Shown here piece after piece: positions 13,245 through 21,011 of a DNA stretch of 64,000 bases. The stretch's first letter is position 1, and every line of letters begins with the position of its first letter. Location of the stretch: positions 1 to 64,000 of the forward strand of contig QPGO01000246.1 of assembly GCA_008632985.1 (NCBI GenBank), in the 5' to 3' direction. The position numbers were made by a program, and so were the translations under genes. A model generated the notes under the pieces. That model saw only the letters and a list, made by a program, of their open reading frames with translations. It did no database searches and was not told the DNA's origin. The DNA is from Psammoneis japonica. Taxonomy: Eukaryota.

Positions 13245-13980
13245 ACGAGTATGAGGACTATGGTAGTTCATGAATACCGGTATATACTGTACTCTACATT
13301 TAGTGGTTTAAAAAGCTTGATCAGGATAGTCGACTCTGCACGGCATATGGTGGTTCTCTGTTCGAGAACCCTACGCTTTAGGAGTGATTCTATGGGCACA
13401 ACATCGTACCAGCGATGGTGGTGTTCGCATAACATAAATTCATATACAGCATGTATATATAAGATAAACCACACAAAAAATCTTTCGACACAGAAAAGAT
13501 GCACCATTCAACAACACACACCGCTATCCATCTATCGCAGCAATGTCAAACATCATCGAAGACGTCGTCCGGAACCAACGACGACTGTTTCAGGAACCAC
13601 TTGTCAATGTCAACACAAAGCCAACTGGGAATGCTCTCACCCTTTTCATCTGAATCTTGTTTAATGAGCTGAATTTTGGAAGTGAGTTTAAGCTGTCCGG
13701 AGTGGGAAAGACCTCGGGAAGTTAGCTCGTCGTCAACCTCACGCTCACACCGCTCACTCTCGTGCTTCTTCAGAATCGCAAGTTTTTTCGTAACGTTCAG
13801 CATCCTGTCAAAGTCGGTGACACCGCGATCAACCATCTCTTGCTCCAAGTGTTTTGTGTTGGCTTTGAGACCGAGAGGGCGATGAGAATTGACAGAATTC
13901 TAAGAAGAATTAAAGGTGTATGTCACTCTCTGGCTGAAACATGTGTGACTATGTACAAAAAGCCTGTCAGTTTGAAGAAT

Positions 13981-14050
13981 GCGGTAAATGGTTTAGTCGG
14001 TAACCGGTTATAAGGGGACCTAGGTTCGATTCCTGGGTATCGCAATTTTT
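13981..14050 (+). ncRNA. tRNA-like Pol III cassette in the 5' LTR
   Basis: A box TGGTTTAGTCGG, B box GGTTCGATTCC, T-arm CTAGG-TTCGATT-CCTGG, acceptor-like stem GCGGTA/TATCGC-A, collapsed anticodon arm, T5 terminator. Confidence 0.75.
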
Positions 14051-14342
14051 CAGGTTGATGGGTCGGATTTAATCGAGTTGGTCAATCTTGTTTAAATCCT
14101 GTCATGGTGCGAGGACCGTTGATGATTTGAACCTAGGTGTGTGTGCTCCTTCAAGATGACTCTAAAACTGAGGAGAGGCTGCGGTGAGACAGACCGACGA
14201 TGCACATAGTGCTCTTATTAGGGATGCCGAGGCCGGAATGGCCGCCCAATTATCAGTTCGCCGGGGAGGTCATGACATGTGCAGAAAAATGTGGCCCAGG
14301 TAGAAGGGGAGCTGTGAGAAGTATCATTGTCCAAAGAAAGGA

Positions 14343-14378
14343 ACGTCAGACAGCTTCGTGACGTCAGACAGCTTCGTG
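14343..14378. repeat. 18-bp perfect tandem repeat in the TRIM internal region
   Basis: acgtcagacagcttcgtg x2. Confidence 0.95.
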
Positions 14379-14481
14379 ACATATGGGGAGTGACAGAATT
14401 CTAAGAAGAATTAAAGGTGTATGTCACTCTCTGGCTGAAACATGTGTGACTATGTACAAAAAGCCTGTCAGTTTGAAGAAT

Positions 14482-14551
14482 GCGGTAAATGGTTTAGTCG
14501 GTAACCGGTTATAAGAGGACCTAGGTTCGATTCCTGGGTGTCGCAATTTTT
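14482..14551 (+). ncRNA. tRNA-like Pol III cassette in the 3' LTR
   Basis: Second copy of the cassette; both LTR mismatches fall inside it. Confidence 0.75.
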
Positions 14552-17082
14552 CAGGTTGATGGGTCGGATTTAATCGAGTTGGTCAATCTTGTTTAAATCC
14601 TGTCAAGAATGACATCCGAGAAGTCGCGGCGGCAAGTCTTCTCCTCTTTTCAGTTGACGTGAATTCGGCGCCTTTCTCCTTGTCCCAATTTGCAATAATC
14701 TCACCAACCTTTGCATCGCTTGTTTGTTCTCTTATGTTCTCTGACTTTGACAGCAGTGCGTCTTGAATTTGCTCTCGTCGTTTGGCCAATTCTTCGTGTC
14801 CAACCACGCTTGCCACCGATGCGTGTTGTTTCAGAATGTTCGAAACCGTCCTTTCAATGTCAAGGAGCTTCTTGATCCCATGCCTGTTGCCGCGCTTGCG
14901 CCGTGTTGGCTCATCATCGTTGGCATTGTCCTCTTCGTCTTCTTCTCCTTCGTCTGGCTTCTCTGGTGAGTCCTCCTCTCCATCACGGCGCTCTGTCATG
15001 AATCCATTGCTTGCGATTGCACAGGCATTTGCCATTGTCTCACTCTTGCCCGTTGATGCCATTAGAGCACCAAGCTTCACAAGTCGCTCATTGTCATGCT
15101 GCGTTGCTGATTGCGAGCAAATCTGCGTCAGAGCGATCATGCGAAAGGAGCGAGCGCGGGGATTGGACCGATCCCAAATGTCAAGATCCCCATTGCGATT
15201 TCGTCAACGACGGGTTGATGGCATGCAGCAAGTGGGTGCGACAATGTTTGCCCAAGGGATTCTCCCGGCACCCCCTTTTGAAGGAATGCGTGGAACTTGG
15301 CAAGGTTGATTTGCCTCTGATGAATTGTGGAAAAAAATGTTCCTGCAGCTGGAGTGATCGTTGCATTCTCGCTTTTCAGAAATCGTGCAACGACTTGACC
15401 CGTTGGTTGCTCGGAGCAAATGGCTTTTGTGATCCGCTCTGTCTTCAGGTGACGATCATTGTGTTTCCTCACCTGTGACATCATTTCCTTGACGAAGAGA
15501 CTGACCATTTCTTCTTTCCGGCTGCGACAAGACAGGTCTTGCATTGAGTTCACCTGATCCTTGAACGCCTTGAACTCACTCATTGTTGCCATGACGAAAG
15601 GATCTCCTCCAAATCTTCGATCATGAGGAAGTGTCGTGCGAGTCGATGGGGAGTCAAATGACCCGGGTCACCAACATTTGGATCCGTGCCTTGATGCCAC
15701 TTCACATGCGGGTTGAGCCATTTCTGTGCCATTCCCGCAAGGAAACAAACGTCCGTGACAATCCAAACCGAGGCGGCAAGCGACAAAAGGTTGGAGGCAA
15801 CTGCACTCTCTTTCTCTTTGGTCGTGGCATTTTTTCTCACTCCTTCAGCGATCAGCTTCAAGAATTCTAGAAACTTCCGAACGAAGCATGCGAGACATCC
15901 GATTGTCCACCATCGAGTGACAAGTGGCTCCTGCATGGCAAGCATCAAGTCCATTGGGGCATCAATCTCAGCAAGCAAGTTGTCTGGCAACTGCCCTGAC
16001 TCTCGAATCTTTGTCCACGCTGCACTGCTGACTTTTTCCATGCGGGCTTGAGTTCCTTGTACAATGTGCAGCACGTGTGAATAGCTGGATCGCATTGCGT
16101 TTGTCCAAACCGCCGTCACCGACATGAGTCTGGACTGGAAGCCGAAATGCCGACTGGACATCATGCATTCCGCAGGAATCCGACGTGGCCCTTTCATGAA
16201 CATTCCACAGTTGGCAAGAGCTGCACCAGCAGATTCTGGTGCACCTTGACCGGAGTCGCACGTTGCTCCCATCATTCGTCGATCGGACTGCCAAGCCGCC
16301 GCAGGCCATGTTTTGTCCCCTTCGCAATGTCTTCACTCTTCTTGCCATTGCAGTGAGGTCTGACCAGAACTGTGCAATTGTTCCATCCTCTGCATTTGAT
16401 TTGTCATCCTCGTCCATGTGCTAAAGAGTCTCACCTCTTGCCCGTTGTGTCCCCCATCAGATTGAACGAATGAAGCGCCTGCCTTGGACATGAGGTTTCC
16501 GAATGCAAGCAACTGCATGTGGCAAGCTGGACAACCCAATTGTCCAATGCAGTGTGAGAAGGGCTGCAACGTGCATCTTTGTGAGCGAAAGCCACTCGAA
16601 ATTGAACTTGCGGCCGTGTTCGTCCTCTTTGCAAAGTGCTTGGATCTCCCTCATGAACGCATGTCGAGCGATTGTTGTCAACAACTCTTGGTCAGGAGTC
16701 AAAATCTGAGGGTGACTCGATGAAAATGAAGCAAACAGAGTCATCGCATTCATTGCAGGTGAGTGTTTCCGCCTGCTGCAAAGCTTCTTCATTGCTCGTA
16801 CGACTGCTCTCTCTTGTTTGTAGCGGCCAAGATCTCCCTTCTCGACGAGCTCATGACTGTTCTTGCTGCTCTCTTCTTTTGCCATGCACGCGGATGGATT
16901 GCTCGGTTGGCTGCAACGACCAGTGGAGAGAAGCATTTGGTTGGCCTTGTTGACGGGAAAGAAGCCAACCTGATCGACCGGGAATGGCACGTCAGAACAT
17001 GTCGACTTCCAGGACTCCTGGAGCATCTTGAATGCTTCGTCGAAATTCGTTGGAGCTCTCAGCGTTTTATTTGGCTCCTGTT

Positions 17083-17285: not shown

Positions 17286-19247
17286 GTTCGACTGGAAGAG
17301 CGGTTGTCCCACATGGCCTGGTAGAAAGACGCATCTTTAGGAACATCAAAGTTGTTTGTAGCTGATGCACAGTGGAATCGAACATTCTTTTCTTCTTTTC
17401 CTTCATTTGTTGTACGGACAGTGACAACCTTTCTGTTGAAGCCAACAGTTGCACCTGACGGCAGCGTCGTTTTGCCATTGACAAAAACCAACTTTCGAGC
17501 TGTTGCTGTGTTCAAGATGTTTGCAGCACATTTTGGAAGAGACTTCCCAATGTGTCGGACCCACTCTTCATCTGCCATCCATTGATTGTGCATCTCCGGG
17601 CGTTCGGTTGCTTCAACAAATGCCTCGAAGGCCTCATTCCGGGACGACATCTTCTTCAATTTGTCCCTGCAGCTAAAAGTTTTTTGACATGAGCTCAAAA
17701 ACAGCATTGTCAACAAGTGTGCAAAATTCTTTTAGCTGCCGATGGGCACTTTTCAAGAACGGGGTCGCATCGGCTCTTTGCCCATCATCGTTTGTCGGCT
17801 TCTCCCGTGCTTCAGTGCGAGGCGCGCCAAATTGGAGTGAGCAAAAACGACGAGTCGAGCCAGTCAAGTTTCTTGCGAACCCCAAATTTATTGTTTATTT
17901 CAATTCTATGTGAAGTTTATTGTGAAACGGTTTCTACGGGATCTTGTGCCCACAGATTCTTGTCGAAGTCTAGAATCTCCAGGTCGAAGCGTTTTCCGAT
18001 CGTCCACCCAGAGAGAGGGTGCATTTCCACTTTCCACCGGCATTCTCTGGCACAAAATACGTTAGATGCATCTGATGACATGAAATGGCCACACCTTCTG
18101 GTGGACCACTTGGAGTCTACAAACAACTTTGACATGGGTCATCTTGTGTGGTCATGTCGTCTCCGTTGCCATCTTGCCTTCTTGCAGAGGACACGTGGCT
18201 TCTCTGGCTAGAGGTTGCATGGACTGTGTGCTCCGAACACACCTCCGAAGCACCCTTCTACTGGCTGCTGTAGAAGCGCTCTCTACTGCTAGCTAGAGAG
18301 TAGCCCTAGACTATTTCATAGTTGTCTCTACTCTCTACCGGTAGAGTAAGTGCCGTAAAGGAGCAATGAGATAGATGTTCAGAAAATGACGGTCGGTGGT
18401 CATCAAGACTCAAGAGTCTGTTGCAGTCTTGACCTCATGGTAGAGTACACGTGGCTTTTCCTTTGTTACTTAGGAATGGATACTGAAAGGGTGGTGTTTG
18501 TTAAGTAGGTTTGAGCTGGTTTCTGTGTCTTCGGTCTTGGGGCACTTTTTGTTGTCGGAAACAGGATTGAGTATTCAATTGCGTTGACCTACTTGATCGG
18601 TCATTACGACTAAAAGCATCAGTCTTCTCCTTCCTTATCTATTTGGTCTTGCGGGGCAACTTTTTTGTAATTTTAAGTCTTGCTCAATGTCTTTGCAAGA
18701 CATAGCACTTCGTAGTAAGATTCTGTAGGTTGTACAGCGGTGGTCACAATTCGAATGACTGGCCACGCACGTCGGCTGCGGCGCATTTTTTTGGCGGCGC
18801 ACCAAGCTTGGTGTTCGGTGTTCCATCTCACAACTCAACAAACAGCAACAAACGAAAGAGTGTGTTGCTATTGAAGGCGTTGTCCATTGGTAAGTGTATC
18901 CTTCTGTCCCGTCAATTCAGGTTATCGCTGTGTAAAGGCTGCGTCGCGTCACGTCACATCTCGTTTGGTGAGCCGCTCTGTTTCAACGCGGCGGCGGTCA
19001 TAGGTTCAAGGTCATACGGTTGCGACTGGTGTATGGCTTATCTTTGTTTCCCCATGTGGCTACTTATAAAATAAGTTCGGTTTCCCTTTGGTACTCATAA
19101 GACATATGAGTATTTTGTATCCTTATGGTACTTTTGTAAGATGAAGATTTAGTCATGTGTCTCATCCATACCCTTTCTCGTTTCTCCTCACCGAATTACT
19201 AAGGATTTTTTCGAATCGAGAAAAGTACAGTCCACGCTACGTCCAAG

Positions 19248-21011
19248 ATGCTCCTCAAGTTCAGCTCTGCAGCATCGATCATCTTGTCGCTGCTGGTTCC
19301 TGGTAGCGACGGCCACGGTTTGATTGAAGATCCTCCGTCGAGAAACTGGATCTGTGGCGCAGTCACCAAGCCTCACGAAGTCAACAACGGAGATGCTCAG
19401 TACCCACAATGCGGTACAGCTTTTAACTTTCAGAGGGAACCGGGTGGATACCAGTTCATGTCTGTTTTAACGCATGATGTTGGGCGTGCTGGGGTATCTC
19501 CATTGCCCACCAATGTCTGTGGTTTCGACTCTGAGACTTGGTCTGGTGGATCCACTCCGTGGGACGCCCCCATGGATTGGCCCACATCCCCAGCGACTCC
19601 TGGACGTCAGGAAATCAAGTGGAATATTTTCTGGGGACCGCACTTCTCCGATACCGAAGAGTTCCGCTACTGGATCACCAAGTCAGACTTTGTTTACGAT
19701 TCAACAAGAGCCTTGACGTGGAATGATTTTGAATCTGATCCCTTTTGCTACTTGACGTACAACGATAGCGTTCCCACTGCAAACCCAGACGTGATTCCCG
19801 ATACGGGTAGCGCCACGTTCAGCACCTTTTGTGATGTTCCTAATCGCAGCGGTCATCATATCATTTATGGCGAATGGGGGCGAAACCAGTGGACGTATGA
19901 ACGTTTTCACGGCTGTATCGATTTGGACTTTTCTGGTGGAGGCACTCCTTCTGGCCCGTTTCCATCGCCTCCAGGACCCCCCGGTCCAGCGGGCGGTCCA
20001 ACTCCGTCAACCCCAGTCCCGAGTCCTTCGCCCCCTGTCACGGCCGACCTTGCTCTATCACCAAGTGTCAGCAGCATTACAGGATCAGGTACCATTACTT
20101 TGATTGCTTCAGGGTCTTCGGGAAGCAACCTAAGCTACTCGTGGGCCTTCTCCACACCCTCTGGCGATAATTCCCTCTACTCAATTTCTGGCTCTGGAGC
20201 TACGGCCACTCTGACCTATGGTGATCCTACCGCCGAGCGTTCATTGATGATCATGCTGACCGTCTCCAACGCAGATGGTACCAGTACAGAGTCTGTGACC
20301 ATTACGCATTTGCCGTCCACGACAAGCGGCAGTCAGTGGGTTGATCTAGGGCCCCTGACGGACATGAGCATAGTACTTGATGTGGGAGTCCAGGTGAGTG
20401 TCCGCGCTGTCGACTCTAACGGCGTGGACACGTACTATCCAGACCCAGCATTTGTCGCTGGTACCAGCAACCGCTGGGCCGACAACTGGCCTTACTATCT
20501 TTCGCAAGCGATTTCTGCAAGCGCGCCCATTGCTGTAGGACAGCTTAACACTGCAACTGATAGTGTTGATGGTATCTGGAACGCAACCGGTGCTCACATT
20601 TACGCTCGCGTTGGTAACAATATCAACGCCGCCTATCTACATCTCGCAGATCCCGCACCTGCTCCTACGCCCGCCCCTGCGGGTGGCGGCGGAGGAACTG
20701 GCGGCGGTGGAGAGTGCTCTATTTCGTACCAGGCTGCGTGCAATCCTTGGTGGTGTGGATTGGAAGTGGGATTCGATACTCAGACCATGACCTTGGATTT
20801 CACTGGAAGTGGATTGGACCTATCCACTGTTACACAATTTCAAGGCGTATCGGGTGCAGTTCAAAACGGTGCCTTCACTGTCACTCGGTCCGGCCAGACA
20901 TTGCTCCTACAGAAGGAAGGTTGGGTTAGTTTGGGAAACCGCGGATATTTGGGCTTGAACGGTAACAACGTTCCAGCCCTTGCGACCTTTACATTGCCCA
21001 CTTGCATCTGA
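19248..21011 (+). CDS. AA10 lytic polysaccharide monooxygenase with Pro/Gly linker, PKD/Ig-like and GbpA-like accessory modules
   Basis: Signal peptide ending SDG|H (His1), HGLIEDPPSRN, WGPHFSDTEEFRYWITK, LTWNDFE, VPNRSGHHIIYGEWGR, RFHGCIDL. Intronless. Accessory domain calls are tentative. Confidence 0.9.
   Translation: MLLKFSSAASIILSLLVPGSDGHGLIEDPPSRNWICGAVTKPHEVNNGDAQYPQCGTAFNFQREPGGYQFMSVLTHDVGRAGVSPLPTNVCGFDSETWSGGSTPWDAPMDWPTSPATPGRQEIKWNIFWGPHFSDTEEFRYWITKSDFVYDSTRALTWNDFESDPFCYLTYNDSVPTANPDVIPDTGSATFSTFCDVPNRSGHHIIYGEWGRNQWTYERFHGCIDLDFSGGGTPSGPFPSPPGPPGPAGGPTPSTPVPSPSPPVTADLALSPSVSSITGSGTITLIASGSSGSNLSYSWAFSTPSGDNSLYSISGSGATATLTYGDPTAERSLMIMLTVSNADGTSTESVTITHLPSTTSGSQWVDLGPLTDMSIVLDVGVQVSVRAVDSNGVDTYYPDPAFVAGTSNRWADNWPYYLSQAISASAPIAVGQLNTATDSVDGIWNATGAHIYARVGNNINAAYLHLADPAPAPTPAPAGGGGGTGGGGECSISYQAACNPWWCGLEVGFDTQTMTLDFTGSGLDLSTVTQFQGVSGAVQNGAFTVTRSGQTLLLQKEGWVSLGNRGYLGLNGNNVPALATFTLPTCI

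Follow-up and report, generated by a model that had tools for sequence, protein, structure and literature searches.

With a probability of about 0.95, the 716-bp TRIM found in the 64,000-nt stretch of Psammoneis japonica DNA analysed here (the window; contig QPGO01000246.1, positions 1 to 64,000) is a non-autonomous Helenus-type LTR retrotransposon that is reverse-transcribed and integrated by the dominant Copia family of the genome. This assignment rests on the anatomy of the element and on its link with its helper. In addition, there is somewhat less than an even chance that reverse transcription of the TRIM starts, at its primer site (PBS), on an element-encoded primer, namely the RNA of a tRNA-like cassette present in each LTR.

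Anatomy of the TRIM and of its tRNA-like cassette

The sequence-only reading of the window had described a complete TRIM with TG..CA LTRs, a PBS, a purine tract and an AGAAT TSD. All of these features were located (Table 1), the purine tract being short. The two LTRs of 215 nt each enclose a non-coding interior of 286 nt, for a total of <1 kb. A TGG-type PBS follows the 5' LTR, the PPT precedes the 3' LTR, and the TSD has 5 bp. The two LTRs of this copy differ at two positions, 126 and 150. We considered the disruption of a host gene by the insertion and rejected it, as the reading frame of the empty site continues for only 20 codons beyond the junction. The DNA contigs of X1 and X2 contain no joint spanning the insertion, a result that is uninformative on expression or zygosity.

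Table 1. Features of the TRIM, with positions in the window.
Feature	Position	Strand	Remark
Left TSD, AGAAT	13885..13889	+	matches right copy
5' LTR, 215 nt, TGACAG...CTGTCA	13890..14104	+	ends are those of the helper Copia LTR, inverted; 19/21 nt at right end
Flanking stem, 5' arm (19-bp, G-U-rich stem bracketing the cassette)	13962..13980	+	folding
tRNA-like cassette, 64 nt; acceptor, D and T stems, no anticodon arm	13981..14044	+	
A box of cassette	13989..14000	+	
B box of cassette	14023..14033	+	
Flanking stem, 3' arm	14045..14063	+	folding
T5 run, Pol III terminator-like, one base 3' of cassette	14046..14050	+	
PBS core TGGTGCGA	14105..14112	+	complements CCA plus last 5 nt of cassette and of tRNA-Gly(CCC)
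Box complementary to cassette T arm	14124..14138	+	13 Watson-Crick pairs and 1 G-U of 15
Two tandem 18-nt units	14343..14378	+	three in copy L009, one in copy L010
PPT GGGGAG, short	14385..14390	+	identical to that of helper Copia
3' LTR	14391..14605	+	its cassette 14482-14545, its T5 14547-14551
Right TSD, AGAAT	14606..14610	+	matches left copy

The cassette can be drawn with an acceptor-like stem of 6 bp, a D stem of 4 bp and a T stem of 6 bp, and its A and B boxes correspond to the consensus. A 13-nt linker stands in for the anticodon arm, hence the short distance between U8 and T54 (36, compared with 44-47 in 23 host tRNAs). The parts listed in the sequence-only reading (A box, B box, T stem, acceptor-like stem, T5, no anticodon arm) were found again; it had overlooked the 4-bp D stem, the flanking stem and the match between PBS and cassette. 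ARAGORN called no tRNA in the element, and the cassettes scored 15.5-15.9 bits with the Rfam tRNA model, below the cut-off of 29. No 5S sequence was detected by the Rfam scan even with E up to 10, so that the element lacks the 5S-derived LTR sequence by which Cassandra and Ajax are defined. By end similarity, the nearest of 42 host tRNA genes is Gly(CCC) with 31, narrowly ahead of Lys(CTT) and Gly(TCC) with 30 each; a loose resemblance to tRNA-Gly, as first proposed, is thus a fair description. The tRNA-like fold represents 2.4% of the computed ensemble and lies 0.9 kcal above the MFE, which counts against self-priming.

Two features place the element in Helenus. The A and B boxes of a tRNA-derived sequence are conserved in the LTR (20/20 young LTRs, with Rfam scores below the cut-off), and the cassette is unlikely to be a functional tRNA, as it has no anticodon arm and is negative with ARAGORN. 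Thus, the element fits Helenus by definition, in a comparison of features rather than of descent. The presence of a tRNA-derived, Pol III-type cassette in the LTRs of a TRIM is therefore supported, including by the retention of both boxes in the family, with Pol III transcription itself being a prediction.

A young family and its Copia helper

Searching the genome with the TRIM yielded 33 matches, and since seven of them are full-length with 93-100% identity, the TRIM is not a chance arrangement. The young family, called A, comprises at least 15 loci, and the A box, the B box and the T5 run are each intact in 20/20 of its LTRs. The LTRs of an older subfamily, B, are about 75-80% identical to those of A; it has a different interior of 437 nt and includes one tandem array. 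Its copies are mostly heavily mutated duplicates of one insertion, plus one other decayed LTR, and they have the A box in 13/13, the T5 run in 13/13 and the B box in 2/13 LTRs. Conservation of the A and B boxes across copies had been proposed as a check on the cassette; it is complete in the young family, and the low B-box count belongs to the hypermutated older subfamily. An internal CCTGTCA at LTR positions 75-81 was considered as a relic LTR end and discarded, since it is lost in subfamily B.

Repeats of this genome are hypermutated from TA to TG or CA, and a similar TA-loss process appears to be reported in bioRxiv 10.64898/2026.01.13.699255. The TRIM has 9-14 TA per 300 nt and its right flank 0-2; this retention of TA next to a depleted flank supports the youth of the element. 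The two LTR mismatches had been taken as the sign of a recent insertion. Recency holds on the basis of TA retention, but the mismatches give no age: one of the two is of the TA>TG hypermutation type, and the insertion is thus undatable. Among the seven full copies of family A, the two LTRs differ at 2-4 positions in six and at 12 in one.

The last 11 bases of the TRIM occur 975 times in the genome, versus 20 for a control. We chose 20 same-strand pairs among the first 100 sites listed, and all 20 were LTR pairs of one family, up to about 7 kb. The single copy scanned codes for an RVT_2 (Copia) domain, and the TSDs of this family are 5 bp long (16 exact and one near among the 17 read). Its LTR ends are those of the TRIM in inverted order (19/21 nt at one end), and the PPT and the 5-bp length of the TSD are common to both.

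The strongest link between the two elements comes from their target sites. Three of the seven full TRIM copies have their own exact 5-bp TSD and one has a near-match. The remaining three have no TSD of their own and adjoin a full-length Copia LTR, with 0-2 extra bases in between. In these, the TSD is composite, as the 5-mer before the TRIM recurs past the far end of the Copia element (identical for CTTCT and GGCAA, and with a single TA>TG change for TTTAC/TTTGC). Most simply, the TRIM and Copia cDNAs would have been joined and then integrated as a single event. Nine of the 15 family A loci, a number that is a lower bound, are joined to this Copia (three full composites and six chimeras), one lies inside a distant Copia and five are without Copia. 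With its 15 young loci and its co-integration with Copia, the element belongs to a dispersed family moved by an autonomous LTR element, as is typical of TRIMs, and the TRIM-helper pair is established through common target-site duplications.

The helper does not have a TGG-type PBS. In 17/18 copies tested, 12-15 of the 15 nt of its primer site match the host tRNA-Asn anticodon arm. As the helper PBS is thus of the half-tRNA-Asn type and that of the TRIM is another, the TRIM is independent of the primer of its helper, and the match to a primer is not what ties the two together. Of the partner that the sequence-only reading had anticipated, one sharing termini and PBS, the termini were found, in inverted order, but the PBS differs. 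Three pattern scans of the genome revealed no other LTR element with the PBS of the TRIM.

The primer site and its candidate primers

The PBS of the TRIM is bipartite, with an 8-nt core and, 11 bases downstream, a 15-nt box, the two parts being in the order expected for one primer. The core pairs equally well with the 3' end of the cassette or of host Gly(CCC). The box pairs with the T arm of the cassette at 14/15 nt, and its letters correspond to the cassette's own T stem, not to that of Gly(CCC). Calculated duplex energies with the PBS region are -37.4 to -38.1 kcal/mol for the cassette, -34.0 for Ser, -30.4 for Gly(TCC) and -28.9 for Gly(CCC). For the box alone, two tRNA-Ser score 13.8 and 12.5, the cassette 12.3 and Gly(CCC) 7.4; the Ser tRNAs thus fit the box as well, yet their match to the PBS is limited to 3 nt. 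In a comparison with 42 host tRNA genes, only the cassette combines a high score for the 3' end with a high score for the box. The host tRNA set is incomplete (63 of 3479 candidates scored; intron-bearing or non-canonical genes would escape detection), and it lacks Gly(GCC) as well as several other isoacceptors. Judging from these computed pairings, the PBS fits its own cassette better than any host tRNA found in that incomplete list, with Gly(CCC) tying at the 8-nt core.

The box match was reached by 0/1000 dinucleotide shuffles of fixed length, 0/2000 position-restricted shuffles and 1/1577 real 40-nt windows. Scored locally with the whole interior, it is only at about the 95th percentile of 200 shuffles, which counts against self-priming, and the box is in part a generic anti-T-loop sequence. 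The lack of a T-arm box in subfamily B also counts against self-priming. The least changed PBS of that subfamily (L028) matches its own cassette over 9 nt, the state of the cassette being deduced from a TG/CA mixture. The ancestral letters of subfamily B at cassette +1, position 72 and PBS position 5 are ambiguous, and one reconstruction gives a mismatch. A three-way covariation of these positions between subfamilies is attractive but not established, since T>C changes in old copies are not confined to TA, and C stands at position 72 in 13/13.

Several other candidates were set aside. The complement of a 14-nt reading of the PBS is present in no host tRNA, and all 12 matches are the TRIM itself. 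Loci L099 and L103, considered as a second family with PBS and box, have no LTR and are located in other sequence. Seven CTGTCATGGTACGA matches belong to the gag region of a young, unrelated Copia whose termini and PBS are different. A Gly(CCC)-type PBS gave 13 matches versus 7 for the control, none of them at LTR ends. In a metagenome scan of at least 120 loci, no relative of the TRIM was present among the matches listed, and a 6-nt self-match in three of the 120 loci listed was taken as chance.

We propose, while giving it somewhat less than an even chance, that this gene-less element encodes its own primer: a Pol III-transcribed tRNA mimic in the LTR, matured by the host, would act on a tailored bipartite PBS and bypass the half-tRNA primer of the Copia. 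Pol III would transcribe the LTR cassette and mostly halt at T5, yielding a tRNA-like RNA of ~65 nt, which host enzymes would trim and supply with CCA. This RNA would anneal to the bipartite PBS through 8 nt at its 3' end and 14 nt of its T arm and prime minus-strand synthesis, so that the half-tRNA-Asn primer of the helper would not be needed. The genomic RNA would arise by read-through of the first T5, with R corresponding to the cassette, or by Pol II transcription, and the arms around the cassette would keep its two ends together. The short RNA would be the main Pol III product because T5 is an ordinary terminator in this host, T4 or T5 being the first run in 25/30 tRNA genes. T5 is not diagnostic, as fungal Helenus also have T runs after the cassette; that they do so with no reported match between cassette and PBS (PMC10886601) counts against self-priming. 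That the element has no further T4 run is not significant (P 0.21 and 0.27). Self-priming gained weight from the composite TSDs, because they fix a helper with a different primer.

It is also quite possible, and only slightly less likely, that the cassette is only a promoter, in line with the published reading for Helenus (PMC10886601). Transcription would start in the 5' LTR, pass a leaky T5 and end in the 3' LTR. Priming at the 8-nt PBS, helped by a generic anti-T-loop box, would fall to a tRNA-Gly of the host, either CCC or a GCC that escaped detection, and the match with the cassette would result from common tRNA descent. Gly(CCC) indeed pairs with all 8 nt of the core and is the nearest host tRNA to the cassette, and the core of the box pairs with many T loops. 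However, Gly(CCC) scores low on the box (7.4 vs 12.3); the B box of its gene departs from the consensus, and T4 is missing from the next 30 nt, the first long T run being about 50 nt downstream. The ends of the read-through RNA are predicted to be closed by 41 long-range pairs (mean probability 0.84), which speaks for this model, but T5 is expected to stop most Pol III transcripts. In a Helenus-like LTR of a metagenome contig (L189, L192), T6 follows the cassette and the PBS does not resemble the cassette end, which fits a promoter-only role. Against this role, pattern scans of this genome found no autonomous element with a Gly-type PBS. Acceptor and D stems would be superfluous for a pure promoter, an argument that carries little weight since they are invariant between subfamilies.

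The arms around the cassette are relevant to a further, improbable model in which the element is transcribed by Pol II and relies on a host primer. The cassette, together with the flanking stem, would then serve as a TFIIIC site or local RNA structure, and the box would gate the PBS by folding back in cis on the 5' cassette. The 19-bp, G-U-rich flanking stem folds locally with a z of -3.96, 0/1000 shuffles matched it in a separate test, and its arms straddle cassette +1 and T5, thus requiring sequence 5' of +1 and 3' of T5. In its 8-bp core, four pairs have changed between A and B without loss of pairing, one of them through changes on both sides; over the whole stem, 4/19 pairs are broken in subfamily B. 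The same arms would pair equally well as a 5'-3' closure of read-through RNA, and they could thus either pair locally in a longer (Pol II) transcript or link the ends of a read-through RNA made by Pol III. The computed probability of cis pairing between the box and the T arm of the 5' cassette is 0.41 for a 220-nt fragment at 37 C, but 0.03 at 20 C and 0.0 in longer folds, and 20/20 young LTRs have kept the A box, the B box and T5, which counts against this model. Finally, it is very improbable that the cassette is a passenger left over from the insertion of a tRNA or SINE and devoid of current role: between subfamilies it is no better kept than U5 (55/64 vs 38/41 nt), a point that also weighs against self-priming, and its Rfam score is low, but the differences concentrate in the linker (9/13 shared) and spare the arms (46/51 shared), both boxes and the T5 run persist, and the cassette is matched by the PBS region.

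Comparison with known systems

At minimum, this element extends tRNA-bearing TRIMs to stramenopiles; 24 matches to silicon transporters point to a diatom as the host. Helenus elements (Kojima 2024, PMC10886601) are TRIMs with a tRNA-derived sequence in their LTRs, and Table 1 of that paper includes fungi, animals and one lycophyte, but no stramenopile; the word 'diatom' has 0 occurrences in its supplement. The occurrence in fungi, animals and plants mentioned in the sequence-only reading agrees with that table, the plants amounting to one lycophyte, as does its suggestion that a diatom example may be new. PMC13570524, in the part considered here, only cites Helenus.

Our TRIM shares with Helenus/TRIMp3 (TRIMs of 311-1263 bp; PMC10886601) a tRNA-derived A/B-box unit in each LTR, a PBS, a PPT, a 5-bp TSD and a T run after the cassette, as well as the Copia dependence of the fungal families. 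Among the entries considered in the PMC10886601 supplement, fungal Helenus have T4 after the cassette, three of the four cases being distinct elements. The TRIM differs in its stramenopile host and its deleted anticodon arm. It also has an 8 + 14 nt match between cassette and PBS, whereas no such complementarity was found in published Helenus (PMC10886601). The helpers of fungal Helenus were deduced from PBS types common with Copia partners; here the helper is revealed by composite TSDs, and it uses another primer. The same paper argues for multiple origins of Helenus, and it leaves unexplained how TRIMs maintain their dependence on helpers, that of Cassandra being unidentified. If the cassette is the primer, the tRNA-like part of Helenus would gain a role excluded by the defining paper (PMC10886601).

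Cassandra and Ajax (PMC10886601) similarly carry a Pol III-type unit in the LTR, and Cassandra transcripts span LTR to LTR; in contrast with these 5S-derived TRIMp3, the TRIM has a type 2 (tRNA) promoter, as predicted from its motifs. Ty1 and Ty3 offer a parallel for the bipartite site: in the part of PMC4974528 considered, a short PBS with downstream boxes pairing to the T and D arms of the primer is established, and the CYC5/CYC3 cyclisation of Ty1 is a 5'-3' pairing of the genomic RNA. These autonomous elements use host tRNA-iMet, whereas the best-fitting primer of the TRIM would be element-encoded. As for the helper, rather than the TRIM, it resembles half-tRNA-primed Copia elements (Ty5, Drosophila copia and rust Copia, as far as cited in PMC10886601) and diatom CoDi (PMC2806351) in being an RVT_2 Copia with a PBS for the anticodon arm of tRNA-Asn. 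The part of PMC2806351 considered here names diatom Copia lineages and mentions neither tRNA nor TRIM.

Our literature search, largely confined to open-access papers, yielded neither a tRNA-bearing TRIM from a diatom nor a self-encoded tRNA-like primer. Should the cassette be the primer, an element-encoded tRNA mimic would be added to the ways in which LTR elements are known to be primed; being young and only 716 bp long, the element lends itself to a direct test of this question. Reduced-arm tRNA-like RNAs that receive CCA are known in the form of mascRNA-like tRNA mimics. Tf1 is self-primed, its primer being cleaved from the 5' end of its own mRNA, with no separate tRNA-like gene or CCA known to be involved. 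Thus, the TRIM would resemble Tf1 in that the primer comes from the element itself, and would differ from it by using a tRNA-like gene and CCA.

Junctions between the TRIM and Copia elements

At four loci of the host genome (L365, L366, L367 and L368), TRIM and Copia cDNAs are fused end-to-end, with 0-2 bases at the junction. The terminus shared by the two elements forms a perfect palindrome at two of these junctions. TRIM pieces are also found in Copia interiors, in both orientations, at L369, L320, L008, L010 and L371. Two of them are flanked on both sides by duplicated Copia sequence, of about 22 and 600 nt. Template switching or capture of cDNA would account for the look of these embedded pieces.

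TRIM variants and TA loss

In a contig of sequencing run X1, the 3' internal motif of the TRIM is preceded by uncharacterised sequence, a hint that another internal variant exists. An isolated cassette fragment of 53 nt from subfamily B, the older, hypermutated TRIM relatives, lies outside any LTR, with most of its TA sites intact.

A TA-erased domain adjoins the TRIM, and TA loss also affects repeats genome-wide. The outcome, TA>CA versus TA>TG, varies with the 5' neighbour; after G, CA is favoured in three of four contexts (0.68-0.80).

Locations of the features described
Feature	Location
TA-erased domain	window 14700-16200
Joint in X1 contig	window 14361
Subfamily B cassette fragment	L348:960-1012
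LPMO_10/GbpA_2 frame	window 19203-21011 (+)
Silicon-transporter frame	G000:C38:226311-230342
Helenus-like LTR, metagenome	L189:1150-1330; L192

Host tRNA and other genes

The host tRNA-Gly(CCC) gene (L045/L370) has a compensated A53-T61 pair and a non-consensus B box, and its terminator is far away. Three further sets of tRNA calls are unusual: a Phe with anticodon AAA (L087), a Lys-like gene whose intron is odd (L090) and related Thr/Ala-like genes with differing anticodons, clustered on one contig (L059, L089 and L092).

An intronless 602-aa frame in the window, with LPMO_10 and GbpA_2 domains, is similar to bacterial GbpA-type chitin oxidases; horizontal acquisition of this gene is possible. 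Elsewhere in the host genome, a single 1511-aa open frame comprises three silicon-transporter units.

Primer sites and Helenus-like elements

A separate Helenus-like LTR of about 150 nt (TGACAG...TGTCA), present in two metagenome contigs, carries a full-length tRNA-like unit and T6. The PBS of this element, TGGTATCAGAG, does not match its own cassette and is presumably of the initiator-Met type. A second, very young Copia family (L361-L363; 337-nt LTRs, 99-100% identity, TA intact) has a PBS that is neither TGG-type nor Asn-type. The dominant Copia family (L109-L128; 975 LTR-end sites) is probably primed by a tRNA-Asn half, judging from its PBS match. In the supplement to Kojima 2024 (PMC10886601), which defined Helenus, the PBS of a rust Helenus starts with the same letters as that of the dominant Copia.
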